Positions 33,655 to 42,873 of a stretch of DNA of 64,000 bases are shown here, one piece after another; positions within the stretch are counted from its first letter, which is position 1, and the number at the start of each line of letters is the position of its first letter. The notes below the pieces were generated by a model that worked only from the letters and a program-made list of their open reading frames with translations, searched no databases and was not told the origin of the DNA. The translations under genes were made by a program, and so were the position numbers. Origin of the DNA: Alphaproteobacteria bacterium (GTDB lineage: Bacteria > Pseudomonadota > Alphaproteobacteria > SP197); the NCBI GenBank assembly GCA_965228895.1, contig OZ245842.1, forward strand, positions 4,320,001-4,384,000, written 5' to 3'.

Positions 33655-33712
33655 AGGGAAACCCTGCCTGTTCGGCCCTGACATAACGAAGCGCCTGCCG
33701 GCTTGGCAAACC

Positions 33713-33756
33713 CTTTCCATCGGGCTTTCCATCGGGCTTTCCACCGGGCCCTTTCC
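33713..33756. repeat. 12-bp tandem repeat (CTTTCCAYCGGG) x3 plus partial copy
   Basis: CTTTCCATCGGG CTTTCCATCGGG CTTTCCACCGGG CC CTTTCC. Confidence 0.9.
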
Positions 33757-33780
33757 TATGGGGGGCGGTGGGGCTACAAA
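33752..33780 (+). promoter_or_regulatory. Putative sigma70 promoter of tsaE, probably leaderless
   Basis: TTTCCT-N17-TACAAA with the ATG 6 nt downstream and no SD. Confidence 0.5.
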
Positions 33781-33786
33781 CGCGCC

Positions 33787-34266
33787 ATGAGTGCCTCGCC
33801 AAGCCCGACAGCCGCCCGCGACATGATGCTGGCCGCCGAATCGGTGACCCGGACACTGGCAGACCAGATTGCCGGCCTTGCCAAACCGGGCGATCTGATT
33901 GCGCTATGGGGCGACCTGGGCAGCGGCAAGACGACCTTCGCGCGCGGCTTCATCAACGCGCTGACCGGCGAGACCGAGGTGCCCAGCCCGACCTTCAGCC
34001 TGGTTCAGACCTATGACGCGCCGGACTTCGTCATCTGGCATTTCGACCTCTACCGGCTCGACCGGCCGCGCGACGTCCTGGAACTCGGCTTCGACGACGC
34101 GCTCAACGATGACGTCGTCCTGGTGGAGTGGCCGGAACGGCTTGGCGAGTACCTGCCGGAAGACCGACTTGATCTGCGTTTCCGCCTGGTCGCGGCGGGC
34201 GGGCGTTTTGTGCGCCTGGAAGCCTGTGGCAGTTGGGCCGAGCGGTTGAATGCTATGGCGTCATGA
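33787..34266 (+). CDS. tsaE: tRNA t6A biosynthesis ATPase TsaE
   Basis: LWGDLGSGKTTFAR, VPSPTFSLVQTY, HFDLYRL, LVEWPERL. Confidence 0.96.
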   Translation: MSASPSPTAARDMMLAAESVTRTLADQIAGLAKPGDLIALWGDLGSGKTTFARGFINALTGETEVPSPTFSLVQTYDAPDFVIWHFDLYRLDRPRDVLELGFDDALNDDVVLVEWPERLGEYLPEDRLDLRFRLVAAGGRFVRLEACGSWAERLNAMAS

Positions 34267-35249
34267 ACGATCGGGAGGCGCTGATCACCGCCTTTCTGGA
34301 ACGGCACGGCTGGGCCGATGCCGAACGGCGCGTGCTCGCCGGCGACGCCTCGTTTCGCCGTTATGACCGGCTCAGCCGCCACGGTCAGACCGTGGTGCTG
34401 ATGGATGCGCCGCCGCCGCACGAAGACGTGCGGCCGTTCGACCAGATCGCCCGGCACCTGCGCCATCTGGGGCTGGGCGCGCCCGACATCATTGCGGCCG
34501 ATCCTGAGACAGGCCTGCTGCTGATCGAGGACTTGGGCGACGACCTTTTCAGCCGTGTGCTGCGCGACGGCGGTGCCGACGAGACGGTGCTTTACGAAGC
34601 CGCCATCGATGTCCTGGTCGCGCTGCACCGGGCCGGCGCGAAAGCCGCTCTGCCGGCCTACGACAATGCGGTCATGCTGGACCGTGCCCTGTTGCTGGTC
34701 GACTGGTTCATGCCGCTGGCCGGCCTGGAGGTGACCGACGCGGCACGCGCCGATTATGTCGAGGCTTGGCGGTCCGTCCTGCCGCTTGCCCATGACGGAC
34801 CCGATACCGTCATCTTGCGCGACTTTCACGCCGACAACCTGATCTGGCTGCCGCGGCGCGACGACATCGGCAAGGTCGGCCTGCTCGACTTCCAGGACGC
34901 CATGATCGGCCCAGCCGCCTACGACATCGTTTCGCTGCTGGAGGATGCCCGGCGCGACGTCGCGCAACAGACCATCGAGGCCGCCAAAGCACGTTACCTC
35001 GCCGCCTTTCCCAAGCTCTCGCCGGCGACGTTCGACACGACCTATGCGGTGTGCGGTGCCCAACGCAACTGCCGCATTATCGGTGTCTTCTGCCGCCTGC
35101 TGACGCGCGACGGCAAGCCCGGATACCAGAATCTGATGGACCGGGTCTGGGGCCACCTGACGCACGATCTGGCCCACCCGGCCAACGCGCCGCTCGCGGC
35201 ATGGTTCGACCGCTGGGTGCCGCCGGATAAACGGACGCGGGCCGCATGA
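34263..35249 (+). CDS. amgK: Anomeric MurNAc/GlcNAc kinase (APH-like phosphotransferase)
   Basis: LAGDASFRRYDRL, LMDAPP, LRDFHADNL, LLDFQDA, AYDIVSLLEDAR; tsaE-amgK-murU synteny. Confidence 0.85.
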   Translation: MNDREALITAFLERHGWADAERRVLAGDASFRRYDRLSRHGQTVVLMDAPPPHEDVRPFDQIARHLRHLGLGAPDIIAADPETGLLLIEDLGDDLFSRVLRDGGADETVLYEAAIDVLVALHRAGAKAALPAYDNAVMLDRALLLVDWFMPLAGLEVTDAARADYVEAWRSVLPLAHDGPDTVILRDFHADNLIWLPRRDDIGKVGLLDFQDAMIGPAAYDIVSLLEDARRDVAQQTIEAAKARYLAAFPKLSPATFDTTYAVCGAQRNCRIIGVFCRLLTRDGKPGYQNLMDRVWGHLTHDLAHPANAPLAAWFDRWVPPDKRTRAA

Positions 35250-35959
35250 CACAGGTGACGCGCGCCATGGTCCTGGCGGCAGGGCGCGGTGTGCGCCTGA
35301 AACCGCTGACCGAAACGACACCCAAACCGCTGGTCGCGGTCGCCGGACGCACGCTGCTCGACCGCGCGCTCGACCGTTTCGCCGCCATGGAGCTGGTCGT
35401 CGTCAACGCCCATCATCTGGCTGACCAGGTGGCGGATCACCTTCACGGCCGTACGCAACCACCGACGATGTTGTCCCGCGAAACCGACCTCCTGGACACC
35501 GGCCTGGGCGTCAAGAACGCGCTGGGCGATCTCGGGGCATCGCCATTCTTCATTTCGAGTGCGGACATCCTGATAACGACGGGCGCTGCGGGCGACCCGC
35601 TCGATCGACTGGCTGCGGCCTGGGATGACGGCGCCATGGACGCGCTGTTGCTGTTGCAGCCGCGTGACGAGGCGGGCGGTTTCAGGGCGGCCGGCGACTT
35701 CGACCTGGATCGCCATGGCCGGCCGACACGCCGCGGCGACGCACCGGCCGCCGACTACGTCTACGCCAGCACGCAATTGGTTCACCCGCGTCTGTTTGCC
35801 GGCAGCCCCGACGAACCGTTCTCGTTCAATCTCTTGTGGGACAAGGCGATCTCGGCAGGCCGGCTCTTCGCCGTCGTTCATGACGGCGGCTGGTTTACCG
35901 TCGATACGCCGGAGAACCTGGCCGCCGCGCCGGGCTGGCTCGCCATCCATGGCGGCTAA
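35246..35959 (+). CDS. murU: MurNAc-1-phosphate uridylyltransferase-like nucleotidyltransferase
   Basis: AMVLAAGRGVRLKPLTETTPKPL, VVNAHHLA; follows amgK. Confidence 0.8.
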   Translation: MTQVTRAMVLAAGRGVRLKPLTETTPKPLVAVAGRTLLDRALDRFAAMELVVVNAHHLADQVADHLHGRTQPPTMLSRETDLLDTGLGVKNALGDLGASPFFISSADILITTGAAGDPLDRLAAAWDDGAMDALLLLQPRDEAGGFRAAGDFDLDRHGRPTRRGDAPAADYVYASTQLVHPRLFAGSPDEPFSFNLLWDKAISAGRLFAVVHDGGWFTVDTPENLAAAPGWLAIHGG

Positions 35960-38900
35960 GCTTTTTACCATTGCGCCCGGCACGTCCTTTGTCGACGCGC
36001 TCGCCGCCGGTCTTCTTGAACGCCACCGCGATGCGCCGGAGCGCCTCGGCGAGACACTTATATTGGTGCCGACACGGCGCGCCACCCGCGCCCTGCAGGA
36101 AGCTTTCGTGCGCCAAAGTGACGGCGCCGCACTCATCCTGCCCAGCATGCAGCCGCTCGGCGATGTCGATGAAGACGACCTCATCGCCGATCTCCTGGAG
36201 ATGGGTGACGACGCCATCGACCTGCCGCCGGCGATCCCGGTCCTGCAGCGCCAACTGCTCCTGACATCCTTGGTTCGTCGGGCCGGCGCACAGGTCGGCG
36301 CCGGCAATGACGAACAAGCCGCGCGGCTTGCCCGCGACCTCGCCCACCTGCTCGATGAAGTCGAAACGGCGGAGCTCGATTTCGACGCGCTCGAAGGGCT
36401 GGTCGAGGGTGATCTCGCCCGCCATTGGCAGACCACGCTTGCCTTTCTGCGCATCATCACCGAGCAGTGGCCACAGATCCTGAACGAGCGCGGCCTTGTC
36501 GACCCGGCGCAACGCCGCAGCGCCTTGATCGATGCGTTAGCCAAGCGCTGGTCCCAGAACCCGCCGACAACGCCGGTGATCGCGGCGGGCTCGACCGGCA
36601 CGATACCGGCGACGGCGCGCCTGATGGCAACGATCCTCAGTCTGCCCGAAGGCGCCGTGGTCGTTCCCGGCCTTGACCGGCATCTCTCGGCGGAAGCTTG
36701 GGCAGCCGTCGACGACACCCATCCGCAGGCTGCGATTAAGACGCTGCTTGATCACTTCGACAAGGCGCCGGCGGACGTCGCCGATTGGCCGTACCCTGAA
36801 ACGGCCCAAGTACCGCGCGGCGATGCGGGACGGGCGGCGTTGCTGTCCGATGCCATGCAGCCAGCAACGGCGACGACGGCGTGGCAACGCCTTGACCCCG
36901 CCGCGGACAACGTCTTTGACGGCCTGAGCCTGATCGTCTGCGCCCATCAGCGCGAGGAGGCCCAAATCGCCGCGCTCACCATGCGCCACGTCCTGCTGAC
37001 GCCTGGCAAGACCGCCGCTCTGGTCACGCGCGATCGCGATTTGGCGCGGCGCACCGCCGCCGAACTCAAGCGCTGGGGTATCGAGGTCGACGATTCCGCC
37101 GGTACGCCGCTCGCCGAGAGTGTGCCCGGCACCTTTCTGCGGCTGATCGCCGAGGTCGCTGTCGAGCGCGCGGCGCCGATCCCGCTCTTGGCGTTGCTTA
37201 AGCATCCCCTCGCCGCGCTCGGACGCGAGCCCGCGCAACTGCGCGCGCAGACCCGCCACATCGAACGGCTGGCGCTACGCGGTCCACGGCCCGGTTCGGG
37301 TCTGTCCGGCCTGCGCGCCGCGCTGACCCGGCAACCGGTTGACGCCGAACTCGTCGCCCTGGTCGACGACCTGGCAGAGGCTTTCGCGCCGCTTGAAGCG
37401 GCGCTCGCCAACCGCAGGGGTTCGCTCGCCGCCATGGTCGAAGCCCACATCGCCTGTGCCGAGCGCCTGGCGGCACGCGACAACGCGGCGGGCGCCGATG
37501 TGCTGTGGGCGGGCGATGCCGGCGAGGCAGCCCACCGGTTCGTTCAGGAATTGCTGGACCAGGCCGGCATCCTGGCCGGCGCCGAGGGCAACACCTATGC
37601 CGGTCTCTTCACCACGTTGATGCAGGGCCATGTGGTCAGGCCGCGTTTCGGGCGTCATCCCCGGCTCTTCATCTGGGGGCCGCTTGAAGCGCGCATGCAG
37701 CACGCCGACCTCGTCTTGATCGGCGGATTGAGCGAGGGCAGCTGGCCGCCCGAGATCCCGGCCGATCCCTGGATGAGCCGTCCGATGCGCACGGCCTTCG
37801 GTCTGCCGCCCCAGGAACGGCGGATTGGCCAGGCGGCCCACGACTTTGCCCAGGCCGCCGCTGGCGGCGAGGTCGTCATGCTGCGATCCGACAAGATTGC
37901 CGGCTCGCCCGCGGTTCCCGCGCGCTGGCTGATGCGCCTGGAAACCCTGTTGGACGCCTGGGGCAAGCGGCACCTGCTGGATCAAAACGCCGGCCTGTGG
38001 CGCGCCCGCGCCGCGCTGATCGACCGCCCGGCGCTGATCGAGCCCGCAAGACCGCCGGAACCAGCACCGCCGGTCGCCGACCGGCCGCGCCGCCTGTCGG
38101 TCACCCAGGTCGATACCTGGCTGCGCGACCCCTATGCCATCTACGCCCGTTTCGTGCTGGGGCTGAAGGCGCTCGATGCGCTGGACGAGGACCCGGCCGC
38201 CGCCGAGCGCGGCACGTTCGTTCACGAAGCCCTCGATCGCTTTGTCAAAGCTTGGCCGGATGCCCTGCCCGACGACGCCCTGGATCAGCTTCTGGCGATC
38301 GGGCGCGACGTGCTTGGCCCGACGCTCAGCCAGCCGGCGGTCGCCGGGTTCTGGTGGCCGCGCTTCGAGCGGGCGGCCGCCTGGTTTATCGAACAGGAAA
38401 AGGCGCGGCGGCACGAACTCACCGCCATCGTGACGGAGTCAAAGGCGGAACTGAGCCTGGCCGCGCCGGCCGGCCCGTTCACGCTCTCCGCCAAGGCCGA
38501 CCGCCTGGAGCGGCGCGCCGACGGCACGGTCGGCGTCATCGATTACAAGACCGGTACCGCGCCCAGCACCAAGGTCCTGAAGGCCGGCGGCGCACCCCAG
38601 TTGCCTCTCGAGGCGGCGATGATTCGCGAAGGCGCTTTCGTCGACCTACCGGAACGCACAATCGCCGCGCTCGAACACTGGCAACTGCAGGGCGGCGAAC
38701 CGCCGGGCCAGATCAAGCGGCTGGCCGGATCCGAGGCCGATGACCTGGCGGCAGAGTCGCTGGATAACCTTAGCGACCTCGTGGCGCGCTTCGATGAGGC
38801 CGAGACCGCCTATCTCGATCACCCCGACGGCGCCGACGCCAGAGCCTATGACGACTATCTGCTGGTCGCGCGAACCGACGAGCATCGGTTGGGCGCTGAA

Positions 38901-41900
38901 TCGGCCTTGCCCGACCTGAAAGTCGCGCCGCCGTCGCGTGAGACCGTCACGCTGATGCCGGCCGATAGCGTCCAGAGGCTGTTGTCGGATCCCGAGACAT
39001 CGGTCTGGGTCGCAGCGTCCGCGGGCACCGGCAAAACCAAGGTGCTGACCGACCGTGTGCTGCGCCTGCTGCTGAAGGGTGTCGCGGCCGACCGGATCCT
39101 CTGCCTGACCTTTACGCGCGCGGCGGCGGCGGAAATGGCGGTGCGCATACAGCGCTCCCTGGGTGCCTGGGCGACCCTCAACGAACCCGATCTTGCCACG
39201 GCGCTTGAAGGCCTGACCGGCCAGCCGCCGGACGAGGAAACCCTGATACGCGCACGGACGCTGTTTGCCGCGACGCTCGACACGCCGGGCGGCCTCCAGA
39301 TCGCCACCATCCATGCGTTCTGCCAGTCGCTGTTGGGCCGCTTTCCGCTCGAGGCCCGCGTCGCCCCCCATTTTGACCTGGCCGACGAGCGCACGGCGGC
39401 GGAACTGTTGCGCGACGCCCGCGACCGCGTCCTCTCGGCGATCGCGAGAGGCGGCGACGATGCCCTTTCACAAGCGCTTGCTGTCGTCGCGGCCAACGCT
39501 GCCGAGGGCACGTTCGATTCGATCATTCAGGAGATCTGCAGCGGCGCCGGGCGTTTCGATGCTTGCCTGGCGCGCCATGGCGGTCTTGACGGTACGCTCA
39601 ACGCCGTCGCCGATGCTCTTGGTGTCGCACGCGACACCGATGCCGAACAGGTTCTGCGGCAGGCTGCGACGACTGGTGCCCTCGACGAACCCGGATTGCG
39701 CCAGGCGGTCACGGCGATGGAAGCCGGCAAGACAACGGACAAGAAGGCGGCGTCACTGATCGGAGAATGGCTGACAGGTGACGACGACGCGCGCGTTGCC
39801 GGTTTCGCCGATTACTGTCTTGCCTTCCTGACAAAGGAAGGCACACCCCGCGCCAACCTGCCGACCAAGGACGTCGCCGCCGCGTCGCCGGCGGCCGCCA
39901 AAGCATTCGCGACCGAGCAGGCGCGGTTGATCGGCATTGCTGATACGCTCAAGGCCGTTCATGTTTTGCAGCGCACCGCAGCGGTTTTGCGGCTGGGTCA
40001 CGCCGTGCTCGAACGTTTCCGCGACAACAAGACACGACGCGCGCTGCTCGACTACGACGACCTGATCAACCAGACCAACGCGCTCTTGGGCCAGCCGGAC
40101 ATCACGCCTTGGGTGCTCTACAAGCTGGACGGCGGTATCGATCACGTGATGGTCGACGAGGCGCAGGACACCAGTCCCGCACAGTGGCAGATCGTCATTG
40201 AACTGGTGCGTGAGTTCTTCGAAGGCGAAACCTGGGACGACGATGTCCGCACCCTGTTTGTCGTCGGTGACGAGAAACAATCGATTTTCAGTTTCCAGGG
40301 CGCTGATCTCGACGCCTTGCGCAGTGTCCACGATCGTTTGGAGGCATTGGCCCGAGGCGAACAAGGCCGCTGGCGCGAAGACGATCTGAACCGCTCCTTC
40401 CGTTCGGTGTCTGCCGTTTTGACGGTCGTCGACAAGGTCTTCGAAAACGCTGGTGCCCGCGCCGGCGTCGTCGATGACGGCGCGATGCTGGAGCATCTGG
40501 TGCAACGCGCAGGCCAGGGCGGCCTGGTCGAGCTGTGGCCGGTGGTCGGCGACCTCGACGATGATGTGCCCGATCCCTGGCAGGCACCGCTTGGCTATCA
40601 TGAACCGGAAGATCGCAGCACGCGGCTCGCGCGCGAAATTGCCGCGACGATCTATAGCTGGATCGAACGCGACGAGATGCTGGCCTCCAAAGGCAGGCCG
40701 ATTACCGCCGGCGACATCATGGTCCTGGTGCCCCGCCGCACCCGCTTCGTCCACGCCCTCGTGCGTGAACTCAAACACAAGAACGTCGCCGTCGCCGGTG
40801 TCGACCGTATGGACCTTACCGGGCAGATCGCCGTGCGCGATCTGATGATGCTGGGCTACGCCTGCCTGATGCCTGAGGACGACCTGGCCCTGGCCGCCGT
40901 ACTGAAGGGACCGTTGGCGGACTTCGACGACGACCTCCTCTATGTCCTCGCCCGCAACCGTCAGGGCTGGACGCGCGACGGGCGCGGTGACGAACCGCTC
41001 GAGAGCCTGTGGGCGGCCTTGCGTCGGCGCGCCAACGATGACGCCGTCTTTCGGACTGCCCATGACTGGTTCGCCAATCAATTGGCTCATGCGGATTTCG
41101 AGCGGCCGTTCGAGTTCTATAGCCGCATTCTCTCGCAGAGCTGCCCGGCGCCGCGCGGCGACATGGTCGGCCGGCGGTTGAGCGGGCGCGAGGCCATGCT
41201 GCGCCGCCTCGGCATCGAAGCGGAAGACCCGCTCGATGAGTTTCTTGCCGCCAGCCTGGAATATGAACGCGAACACACAGCATCGTTGCAAGGTTTCCTC
41301 GCCTGGCTCGAGGCCGGCAGCGCCGAGATCAAGCGCGAGATGGAAGCCCGCCACGACATGGTGCGCATCATGACCGTGCATGGCGCCAAGGGTCTGCAGG
41401 CGCCGATCGTCTTTCTGGTAGACGACATGGCGACCCGCCCGCCGCGAACCGACAATCTCGTCTGGCTCGACGGCGGCAGCCTGCCGCTCTGGCCCGGCAG
41501 CGCCGGCAAGCGGGACCGCGTATCCGATGACGCCATCGACGAACGCAACGCACGCCAGGATGAGGAGCGCCGCCGGCTGTTGTATGTCGCCCTGACCCGC
41601 GCCGAAGACCGGCTCTATGTCACCGCCGCCTCCAGCACAGGCGAAAGCAAGGCCGACAGTTGGCATGGCATGGTCGCGGCGGGCATGGCCGAGATCGCCG
41701 AACCCTTCGACTTTGAAGCCTCCGGCGATCCCGCCTGGACCGGTCAGGCATGGCGGTATCAGACCTCGCAAGCCGCACCGACTGCAGCGCGACCCGGCAG
41801 ACCGGATGACGGTGACATTGCGGCCAACCTGGAAGCGGAGCTTCTCGCCGCGCCGACCGTCGAACGCGATACGGAACGACCGATCAATCCATCGCGCCTG

Positions 41901-42443
41901 GGCGGTGCGGAACGTGCGCCGGATTCGCCCCTTGGCCCGTCCGGCGGCAAAGCCGCGGCGCGTGGCCGAATCATTCACCGACTCTTGGAACGCCTGCCCG
42001 ATATCCCGCCGGACCGGCGCGCGGATGCCGGCAAGCGCCTGCTGGATTATCTCGCGCGTGACTGGCCAACGGCAGACAAAGCAGACGCGCTTGCCTCGGT
42101 CATCGAGATCCTGGACGATCCGGCCTTCGGCGCCCTGTTTGGCCCCGGAAGTCGGGCCGAGGTCCCGATCATCGGACGGGTTGGCGATCTGGTGATCGCG
42201 GGCCAGGTGGACCGCCTGATCGTTGGTGACGGCATGGTTGATATTGTCGACTACAAAACCAACCGGAAGCCGCCCAAGAATGTACAGACGGTGCCGGAAG
42301 CCTATTTGCGACAAATGGCCGCTTATCGGGCTGTTTTGCACCGAATTTACCCGGGTTTTGTGGTGAATTGCCTGCTTTTGTGGACTGCCGAACCGGTTAT
42401 GCAGGTGCTTCCACAAGACCTTCTGGATGCATACGCGCCATGA
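35949..42443 (+). CDS. addB-addA: Fused AddB-AddA double-strand-break repair helicase/nuclease (2164 aa)
   Basis: N-half is AddB (VPTRRA, IAAGSTG, RWGIEVDDSAG, DPWMSRPMR, KADRLE..IDYKTG). C-half is AddA (AASAGTGKT, LTFTRAAAAEM, VDEAQD, VGDEKQSIFSFQGA, MTVHGAKGLQ, LLYVALTRAEDRL, GQVDRL..VDYKTN). No in-frame stop between them. Confidence 0.92.
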   Translation: MAAKLFTIAPGTSFVDALAAGLLERHRDAPERLGETLILVPTRRATRALQEAFVRQSDGAALILPSMQPLGDVDEDDLIADLLEMGDDAIDLPPAIPVLQRQLLLTSLVRRAGAQVGAGNDEQAARLARDLAHLLDEVETAELDFDALEGLVEGDLARHWQTTLAFLRIITEQWPQILNERGLVDPAQRRSALIDALAKRWSQNPPTTPVIAAGSTGTIPATARLMATILSLPEGAVVVPGLDRHLSAEAWAAVDDTHPQAAIKTLLDHFDKAPADVADWPYPETAQVPRGDAGRAALLSDAMQPATATTAWQRLDPAADNVFDGLSLIVCAHQREEAQIAALTMRHVLLTPGKTAALVTRDRDLARRTAAELKRWGIEVDDSAGTPLAESVPGTFLRLIAEVAVERAAPIPLLALLKHPLAALGREPAQLRAQTRHIERLALRGPRPGSGLSGLRAALTRQPVDAELVALVDDLAEAFAPLEAALANRRGSLAAMVEAHIACAERLAARDNAAGADVLWAGDAGEAAHRFVQELLDQAGILAGAEGNTYAGLFTTLMQGHVVRPRFGRHPRLFIWGPLEARMQHADLVLIGGLSEGSWPPEIPADPWMSRPMRTAFGLPPQERRIGQAAHDFAQAAAGGEVVMLRSDKIAGSPAVPARWLMRLETLLDAWGKRHLLDQNAGLWRARAALIDRPALIEPARPPEPAPPVADRPRRLSVTQVDTWLRDPYAIYARFVLGLKALDALDEDPAAAERGTFVHEALDRFVKAWPDALPDDALDQLLAIGRDVLGPTLSQPAVAGFWWPRFERAAAWFIEQEKARRHELTAIVTESKAELSLAAPAGPFTLSAKADRLERRADGTVGVIDYKTGTAPSTKVLKAGGAPQLPLEAAMIREGAFVDLPERTIAALEHWQLQGGEPPGQIKRLAGSEADDLAAESLDNLSDLVARFDEAETAYLDHPDGADARAYDDYLLVARTDEHRLGAESALPDLKVAPPSRETVTLMPADSVQRLLSDPETSVWVAASAGTGKTKVLTDRVLRLLLKGVAADRILCLTFTRAAAAEMAVRIQRSLGAWATLNEPDLATALEGLTGQPPDEETLIRARTLFAATLDTPGGLQIATIHAFCQSLLGRFPLEARVAPHFDLADERTAAELLRDARDRVLSAIARGGDDALSQALAVVAANAAEGTFDSIIQEICSGAGRFDACLARHGGLDGTLNAVADALGVARDTDAEQVLRQAATTGALDEPGLRQAVTAMEAGKTTDKKAASLIGEWLTGDDDARVAGFADYCLAFLTKEGTPRANLPTKDVAAASPAAAKAFATEQARLIGIADTLKAVHVLQRTAAVLRLGHAVLERFRDNKTRRALLDYDDLINQTNALLGQPDITPWVLYKLDGGIDHVMVDEAQDTSPAQWQIVIELVREFFEGETWDDDVRTLFVVGDEKQSIFSFQGADLDALRSVHDRLEALARGEQGRWREDDLNRSFRSVSAVLTVVDKVFENAGARAGVVDDGAMLEHLVQRAGQGGLVELWPVVGDLDDDVPDPWQAPLGYHEPEDRSTRLAREIAATIYSWIERDEMLASKGRPITAGDIMVLVPRRTRFVHALVRELKHKNVAVAGVDRMDLTGQIAVRDLMMLGYACLMPEDDLALAAVLKGPLADFDDDLLYVLARNRQGWTRDGRGDEPLESLWAALRRRANDDAVFRTAHDWFANQLAHADFERPFEFYSRILSQSCPAPRGDMVGRRLSGREAMLRRLGIEAEDPLDEFLAASLEYEREHTASLQGFLAWLEAGSAEIKREMEARHDMVRIMTVHGAKGLQAPIVFLVDDMATRPPRTDNLVWLDGGSLPLWPGSAGKRDRVSDDAIDERNARQDEERRRLLYVALTRAEDRLYVTAASSTGESKADSWHGMVAAGMAEIAEPFDFEASGDPAWTGQAWRYQTSQAAPTAARPGRPDDGDIAANLEAELLAAPTVERDTERPINPSRLGGAERAPDSPLGPSGGKAAARGRIIHRLLERLPDIPPDRRADAGKRLLDYLARDWPTADKADALASVIEILDDPAFGALFGPGSRAEVPIIGRVGDLVIAGQVDRLIVGDGMVDIVDYKTNRKPPKNVQTVPEAYLRQMAAYRAVLHRIYPGFVVNCLLLWTAEPVMQVLPQDLLDAYAP

Positions 42444-42494: not shown

Positions 42495-42555
42495 CTGGGG
42501 TCAGCGAGCGCCCTCAGAAGGCGAACCGCCGCATTGAACAGGAGATTTGCCGAAT

Positions 42556-42873
42556 ATGACCCAACATGTCACCGACGACTCCTTCGAGACCGATGTCTTG
42601 AAGTCCGAAGGGCCGGTCTTGGTCGATTTCTGGGCCGAATGGTGTGGACCGTGCAAGCAGATCGCCCCGGCGTTGGAGGATCTCTCCAGCGAGATGGGCG
42701 ACCGCGTTCGCGTGGTCAAAGTGAACATTGACGAAAATCCGATGACCCCCTCGAAGTACGGCGTCCGCGGCATCCCGACGATGATGCTGTTCAAGGACGG
42801 CGAGGTCAGCGCCATGAAGGTCGGCGCCATGCCGAAGAGCAAGATCTTCGAATGGGTCGAACAATCGATCTAA
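42556..42873 (+). CDS. trxA: Thioredoxin
   Basis: VDFWAEWCGPCK, YGVRGIPT; SD AGGAGA. Confidence 0.97.
   Translation: MTQHVTDDSFETDVLKSEGPVLVDFWAEWCGPCKQIAPALEDLSSEMGDRVRVVKVNIDENPMTPSKYGVRGIPTMMLFKDGEVSAMKVGAMPKSKIFEWVEQSI

Follow-up and report, generated by a model that had tools for sequence, protein, structure and literature searches.

A probable single-chain AddB-AddA helicase-nuclease conserved in an alphaproteobacterial order

Introduction

AddAB is a textbook heterodimer with one motor and two nucleases. In the stretch of alphaproteobacterial DNA studied here (assembly GCA_965228895.1, contig OZ245842.1, positions 4,320,001 to 4,384,000; 64,000 nucleotides in all, hereafter the window), a first-pass annotation made from the letters alone read addB and addA, at 35949..42443 of the plus strand, as one gene for a single chain with a short Pro/Ala-rich linker. 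Does this locus encode one polypeptide, or does the appearance of a fusion come from an assembly error, from gene decay or from a frame that yields two proteins in the cell? Our analysis makes it very probable that the fusion is genuine and vertically inherited, with AddB, a linker and AddA forming one polypeptide of about 235 kDa. The single-chain reading is supported by the continuous frame, by full matches to the models of both subunits and by conservation in all species of the window's order that hold the gene.

Results and Discussion

One frame encodes both subunits

Translation from the ATG at 35949 confirmed a single stop-free frame on the plus strand, 2164 codons plus the stop, that ends at 42443. 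Both NCBIfam hidden Markov models (HMMs) match it at full length and above their curated cut-offs, an outcome that the first-pass annotation had proposed to check. The addB_alphas model TIGR02786 scores 1000.7 bits (cut-off 486.5) over residues 5-978 and covers profile positions 2-1022 of 1024; the addA_alphas model TIGR02784 scores 1161.5 bits (cut-off 860.75) over residues 1009-2151 and covers positions 3-1135 of 1138. The Pfam matches are PDDEXK_1 (two stretches), UvrD-helicase and UvrD_C. The two subunits are thus encoded by one frame rather than by two adjacent genes. The parts of the gene are as follows, with coordinates of the window.

35949..42443, plus strand: fused addB-addA open reading frame (ORF); both equivalog HMMs over cut-off in one frame
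35961..38882, plus strand: AddB part, residues 5-978, with a helicase-like but inactive N-terminal region and a RecB-family nuclease at the C-terminus (TIGR02786; Pfam PDDEXK_1 at residues 715-947)
38499..38549, plus strand: AddB nuclease active-site motifs D851 ... D865-Y-K867, invariant in 39 of 39 fused proteins
38859..38885, plus strand: AddB C-terminal motif YDDYLLVARTDEH; most relatives have ...ARTxEW at the same place
38886..38984, plus strand: linker, residues 980-1012, variable and Pro/Ala/Arg-rich (15-genome alignment, AlphaFold2 (AF2) model, count of Shine-Dalgarno (SD)-like sites)
38955..38957, plus strand: internal ATG, Met1003, in 3 of 15 aligned genomes; no SD-like site upstream in the window
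38973..42401, plus strand: AddA part, residues 1009-2151, with a superfamily 1A (SF1A) helicase motor and, at the C-terminus, a RecB-family nuclease (TIGR02784; Pfam UvrD-helicase, UvrD_C, PDDEXK_1; Foldseek)
39024..39038, plus strand: AddA Walker A motif, G1026-T-G-K-T1030, invariant in 39 of 39
42210..42257, plus strand: AddA nuclease active-site motifs D2088 ... D2101-Y-K2103 (D2088 39/39, D2101 38/39, K2103 39/39)

Every motif quoted in the first-pass annotation (KADRLE..IDYKTG, AYDDYLLVARTDEH, AASAGTGKT, DEAQD, LLYVALTRA and GQVDRL..VDYKTN) is present in the translation. G+C content by codon position (high, low, high) runs through the junction without a break, and 21 of the 25 linker codons have G or C at the third position, bearing out the claim that these codons are G/C-ending in frame. 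The ORF listing extends the open frame on the plus strand to 35625..42443. Position 35949 is nevertheless the likely start of the fused gene, because an ATG at 35625 would overlap murU and the AddB profile begins at residue 5 counted from 35949.

The fused frame is shared by related genomes. We searched 41 of them with a 400-residue query centred on the junction, and an end-to-end match free of stops was found in 15 genomes of five genera, namely the window's own genome and 14 others. Identity in this search was 93-94% in two genomes of the same genus and 49-55% in 12 genomes of the four other genera. A separate translation reconfirmed the continuity of the 15 junction frames, with junction identities of 47-100% among the aligned set. 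The open frames at these junctions are 1182-2491 aa long, and 12 of the 15 exceed 2100 aa, so the two-part proteins of about 2100 aa that the first-pass annotation had suggested looking for do exist in relatives. No continuous match was found in 16 genomes of other families of the class, which mostly gave two separate half-length matches.

The order of the window comprises a single family, and the order and family samples are therefore the same 33 species. A junction match was present in 19 of the 33, all 19 without a stop across the junction; five of these lie in open frames of 806-1881 aa. Split AddAB was found in none of the 33 species. An AddAB-type match at an E-value of 1e-25 or better was missing from 14 of them, all of one genus:

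G013, G016-G024, G043, G044, G047, G048: species of the order without an AddAB-type match, one genus

The junction was also followed in public sequencing runs by placing contigs of four runs on 38400-39500. None of these contigs has inserted or missing letters over this interval. The contig of the first run (X1) is identical across 38400-39500, and this run may be the window's own source. The second run (X2) comes from another study and carries another organism label; one 22-kb contig from it runs across 38405-39500 with 44 substitutions and without a gap. Of its listed differences, 32 of 39 fall on codon position 3 of the fused frame, as expected if the sequence is translated and under purifying selection.

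Junction, linker and AddB terminal motif

The first-pass annotation had placed the linker (RLGAES...TLMP) at 38886-38960, an ATG at 38955-38957 and the hexamer CTGATG at 38952-38957, all correctly. In the 15-genome alignment, both sides of the junction are conserved: AddB ends with Y-x-D-Y-x-D-V-A-R-T-x-E-W-R-L-G, and AddA begins with S-D-P-x-x-S-V-W-V-A-A-S-A-G-T-G-K-T. The 28-40 residues between these conserved ends are variable in sequence and rich in Pro, Ala and Arg, and their length differs among the 15 genomes by whole codons only.

Split relatives suggest where the linker came from. Around the fused linker, both the AddB end (Y-x-D-Y-x-H-L-A-R-x-x-E-W) and the AddA leader (...Q-R-x-A-x-D-P) of the split type are recognisable. 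Five split outgroups have 7-12 AddB residues beyond E-W and 7-24 AddA residues ahead of the conserved D-P; in four of them the stop of addB and the start of addA overlap, as ATGA, GTGA or TGATG. Judged by these tail lengths, the fused linker of about 30-33 residues consists of what used to be the C-terminal tail of AddB and the N-terminal leader of AddA, with no inserted or new domain. The fusion probably arose when an addB/addA junction like that of the split relatives, abutting or overlapping, lost its addB stop or acquired a small indel.

Two points of the first-pass annotation call for correction. The AddB terminal motif had been described as drifted from the usual type. The change is real, with ARTDEH, and hence His for a near-invariant Trp, in all three aligned genomes of the window's genus. 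However, it is specific to this genus: 11 of the 12 other aligned fused relatives keep E-W (as ARTxEW or ERxEEW), and one (L015) has E-G. Likewise, CTGATG at 38952 had been suggested to contain an old coupled stop/start. The Met at 38955 is confined to the window's genus (3 of 15 aligned genomes), whereas the fusion is order-wide. We therefore consider such a relic unlikely and reject it as the explanation of the hexamer.

In an AF2 model of residues 700-1500 (16 sequences; mean predicted local distance difference test score (pLDDT) 74, predicted template modelling score (pTM) 0.65), pLDDT falls below 50 at residues 954-999, which comprise the AddB C-terminal segment and most of the linker, while the flanking domains are confident. 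The linker is accordingly modelled as disordered or flexible.

One chain or two products

Three observations count against the single-chain reading. A Met stands directly before the conserved SDP of AddA in 10 of the 15 aligned fused genomes, and NCBI records of a fused lineage of alphaproteobacterial metagenome-assembled genomes (MAGs) start AddA at a GTG inside the linker; together these make a second, shorter product possible. In addition, the AF2 model, with its 16 sequences, is uncertain in the last 26 AddB residues and the linker. The frame could then be continuous and still yield two proteins, either through internal initiation, which would make free AddA beside the long chain, or through proteolysis of the linker, which would be protease-accessible if it is disordered as modelled.

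The NCBI records concerned (P0277-P0286) give a 1152-aa AddA that starts at the internal GTG. Comparison of P0025 and P0284 with P0277-P0286 shows that another record of the same 90%-identity cluster reads AddB straight into AddA.

The linkers of the 15 genomes contain 41 in-frame ATG, GTG or TTG codons, and an SD-like motif lies 5-16 nt upstream of only one of them (1/41), below the background rate elsewhere in the same pieces (114/989, 11.5%). The window has no SD-like site upstream of the ATG at 38955, in agreement with the first-pass remark that this codon lacks a clear SD. Nor is any start position in the linker conserved across the order: the residue before SDP is Leu in the window, and Cys, Phe or Leu in other genomes. 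The rarity of SD-like sites and the lack of a conserved start argue against programmed internal initiation. Internal initiation would moreover produce an excess of AddA over AddB and no free AddB. We regard two products from the one frame as improbable, and expect the fused AddB-AddA chain to remain uncleaved in the cell.

Catalytic integrity and decay

In an alignment of 39 full-length fused proteins, the AddB nuclease residues D851, D865 and K867 are present in 39/39. The AddA motor residues K1029, D1403, E1404, Q1444 and R1884, which we take to be the Walker A Lys, the acidic pair of DEAQD, the motif III residue and the motif VI Arg, are also invariant (39/39), and GTGKT and DEAQD are kept. 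In the AddA nuclease, D2088 and K2103 are found in all 39 and D2101 in 38, with Q2122 and Y2126 invariant or nearly so. A RecB-family PD-(D/E)XK nuclease motif is present at the C-terminus of both the AddA and the AddB parts. The fused enzyme is thus expected to be active.

The recB model TIGR00609 gives the fused protein 168.7-171 bits, far below its cut-off of 696. In three species that hold the fused gene (G000, G009 and G012) no RecB was found, only a weak cross-match of the AddA part to the recB model. Therefore, the fused gene is the only enzyme of its kind found in the holders tested. RecB exceeds its curated cut-off in both tested species that lack the gene (753 bits in G016 and 747 bits in G017). 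The absence of AddBA from 14 species of one genus, together with RecB in the two of them tested, looks like an exchange of end-resection systems in this genus.

These results bear on two other readings of the fused gene, decay into a pseudogene and a shift to a different function. Loss of the gene from 14 of the 33 species of the order, and the His in place of the C-terminal AddB Trp in the window's genus, could be read in that way. However, both family models match over their full length and far above cut-off, the catalytic residues are invariant or nearly so in the 39 fused proteins, substitutions relative to the related strain fall mostly on third codon positions (32/39), and the fused holders tested have no RecB. 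Decay or a different function is very improbable. The weakest alternative, that an indel or a miscalled stop near 38880-38960 falsely joined two genes, could appeal to the stop/start look of CTGATG at 38952-38957 and to a genome that is a single 5.53-Mb contig, a kind of assembly that can contain indel errors, but it is already refuted: the contigs of four runs show no indel, the one from an independent study spans the junction with substitutions only, the same frame is unbroken in 14 other genomes (47-94% junction identity) and in all 19 holders of the order, and the codon-position G+C pattern is continuous. The caveat of an assembly indel, raised in the first-pass annotation, can thus be dropped.

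Rarity and lineages of fused proteins

How rare such fusions are had been left open. In an even sample of the class, a stop-free junction match was found in 3 of 301 genomes, all from the window's order and family, at an E-value limit of 1e-66 chosen to list mainly junction-spanning matches. Among 298 sampled genomes outside the window's family, five carry addB and addA in the same frame, separated by one stop (L101-L105). A scan of 185,579 species genomes gave, among the best 80 loci, three that are truly fused, all of them MAGs. In 16 others of these 80 the addB stop is in frame with addA, directly followed by ATG in six of the 16, and 61 have the two parts in different frames or match the addA part only. 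An in-frame single stop between addB and addA means that one stop-loss point mutation would be enough for a fusion. The split loci with such a stop (L023-L025 and L027-L039 from the scan; L101-L105) are labelled Nisaea, BAL199, Rhodovibrio, Micavibrio and Roseomonas-like.

Among proteins, 49 of the best 120 clusters at 90% identity (length band 1190-3787 aa) span the junction, 42 of them with at least 1900 aa, as do 7 of the best 150 representatives at 50% identity. The fused AddB-AddA is therefore rare, not unique. Several other long proteins (P0064, P0042, P0250, P0065, P0044, P0034 and P0123) were rejected as additional fusions, being Arg-rich, out-of-frame upstream read-throughs; their N-terminal extensions are mostly the addA frame read upstream through GC-rich addB. 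P0026 (EukProt), whose model skips the C-terminal motif of AddB, was rejected as well; a wrongly modelled intron is the probable cause.

Three lineages of fused proteins can be told apart by their junction sequences: the window's order, the alphaproteobacterial MAG lineage, and a group that the sources name SAR116 or Puniceispirillaceae. Proteins of the MAG lineage are 2125-2146 aa long, keep the canonical AddB tail HLARVREWSGGG and have Gly-rich and Thr-Pro-rich linkers. The SAR116/Puniceispirillaceae proteins are 2123-2246 aa long, with longer linkers, and come in clusters of 200-600 member sequences. Both share with the window the architecture, the order of parts and the catalytic residues. 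However, the linkers of these database lineages measure 51-62 residues from E-W to Walker A, compared with 41-44, their sequence is unlike, and junction identity is about 40%.

In a tree of the AddA half, each lineage forms one side of a branch, with support of 93 for the window's order, 100 for the MAG lineage and 100 for SAR116. In approximately unbiased (AU) tests under LG+G4 with a quick search (38 and 44 rows), a setting that rejects true clades somewhat too often, holding the window's order and SAR116 together was rejected for neither half (AddA p 0.51, AddB p 0.675), and holding the window's order and the MAG lineage together was rejected for the AddA half (p 0.007) and not for the AddB half (p 0.46). 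The constrained trees that unite the window's order with SAR116 have equal or higher likelihood. E-W-R-L/I follows straight after the AddB motif in many members of both of these groups. Taken together, the sequences point to between one and three origins of the fusion, at least two being the better-supported number.

We tentatively raise the possibility, which we regard as somewhat doubtful, that the single-chain AddB-AddA had a single origin, in an ancestor that the window's order shares with SAR116/Puniceispirillaceae. If so, an abundant ocean group and a further order would long have used a tethered, single-gene helicase and dual nuclease. It would then be an overlooked major architectural class of end-resection enzyme, not a one-off fusion, and would provide expression and structural studies with an AddAB that nature encodes in one gene.

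Comparison with known enzymes

The closest known systems include the split alphaproteobacterial AddAB enzymes (with the labels Thalassospira, Azospirillum, Nisaea, Pelagibius and Terasakiella), which resemble the window's protein in families, full length, addB-addA order and catalytic motifs. They differ by a stop codon between the genes, which overlaps the addA start or lies in frame just before it; the window has none.

AddAB of B. subtilis (3U44, 3U4Q, 4CEH, 4CEI and 4CEJ) has the same design of one motor and two RecB-family nucleases, but consists of two chains. The best sequence match of the AddA part in the PDB is 3u44_A (E 9.6e-22), and the top Foldseek matches of the AF2 model are B. 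subtilis AddA chains (4ceh_A, 4cej_A and 3u44_A, E about 1e-11), followed by RecB. At E 1e-10 or better, the sequence search of the PDB returned no AddB chain.

The nuclease domain of B. subtilis AddB binds a 4Fe-4S cluster through four Cys, the ‘iron staple’. The only Cys residues in the AddB part of the fused protein are Cys331 and Cys503, both outside residues 715-985. Its nuclease domain, having no Cys at all, is therefore without an iron-sulfur cluster of the Bacillus type. As a speculation, the C-terminal Y-x-D-Y...A-R-x-x-E-W segment may take over the stapling role of the cluster.

RecBCD and AdnAB do the same job at DNA ends, and the AddA part has RecB and AdnB among its structural neighbours. 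Both complexes have two motors in separate subunits, unlike the fused AddBA.

Proposed mechanism and implications

By homology with the AddAB heterodimer, the fused enzyme would bind the end of double-stranded DNA. The single SF1A motor of the AddA part would pull the 3' strand, the helicase-like AddB part would scan this strand for a Chi-like sequence, and the two RecB-family nuclease domains would each cut one strand. The enzyme is thus predicted to unwind linear double-stranded DNA in an ATP-dependent way and to degrade both strands, under regulation by Chi. The fusion would fix the stoichiometry at 1:1 and tether the two halves, leaving the chemistry unchanged.

In our view the fused AddBA is genuine and conserved, an architectural variant of a known enzyme that has apparently not been described before; nothing points to a new mechanism, chemistry or pathway. 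Full-text literature searches, whose reach did not extend to the survey of Cromie (2009), returned no account of AddB and AddA fused in nature. Public databases already contain such proteins, under the names ‘AddA’, ‘AddB’, ‘AddA/AddB’ (some, in IMG) or ‘hypothetical protein’. This is an annotation problem, in which one architecture carries inconsistent names and some apparent database fusions are gene-calling artefacts.

The order-wide stability of the fusion would show that the reaction cycle can run to completion without the subunits ever coming apart. The tether would limit the separation of the AddB C-terminus and the AddA N-terminus to what at most about 33-43 residues can span. At about 3.5 Å per residue, a linker of 33 residues would reach no further than about 115 Å when fully stretched. 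A one-gene form could be useful for heterologous expression, single-molecule work and cryo-electron microscopy.

Gene neighbourhood and overlapping frames

The genes on either side of the fused gene agree with the neighbourhood proposed in the first-pass annotation. TsaE and TrxA score over their cut-offs; AmgK and MurU are the best matches of their genes but stay under the cut-offs.

33703..35959, plus strand: upstream tsaE, amgK-like and murU-like genes (TsaE 102.6 bits, cut-off 60.1)
42547..42873, plus strand: downstream trxA (NF006898, 142.3 bits, cut-off 138)

The stop of the murU-like gene overlaps the start of addBA by 11 nt. The fused frame stays open for 324 nt 5' of its likely start (35625-35948), overlapping murU, and long antisense ORFs lie inside addBA, for example one of 887 aa on the minus strand (39753-42416). 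We do not regard the upstream extension or the antisense ORFs as genes; they are by-products expected at a G+C content of 66-70%.

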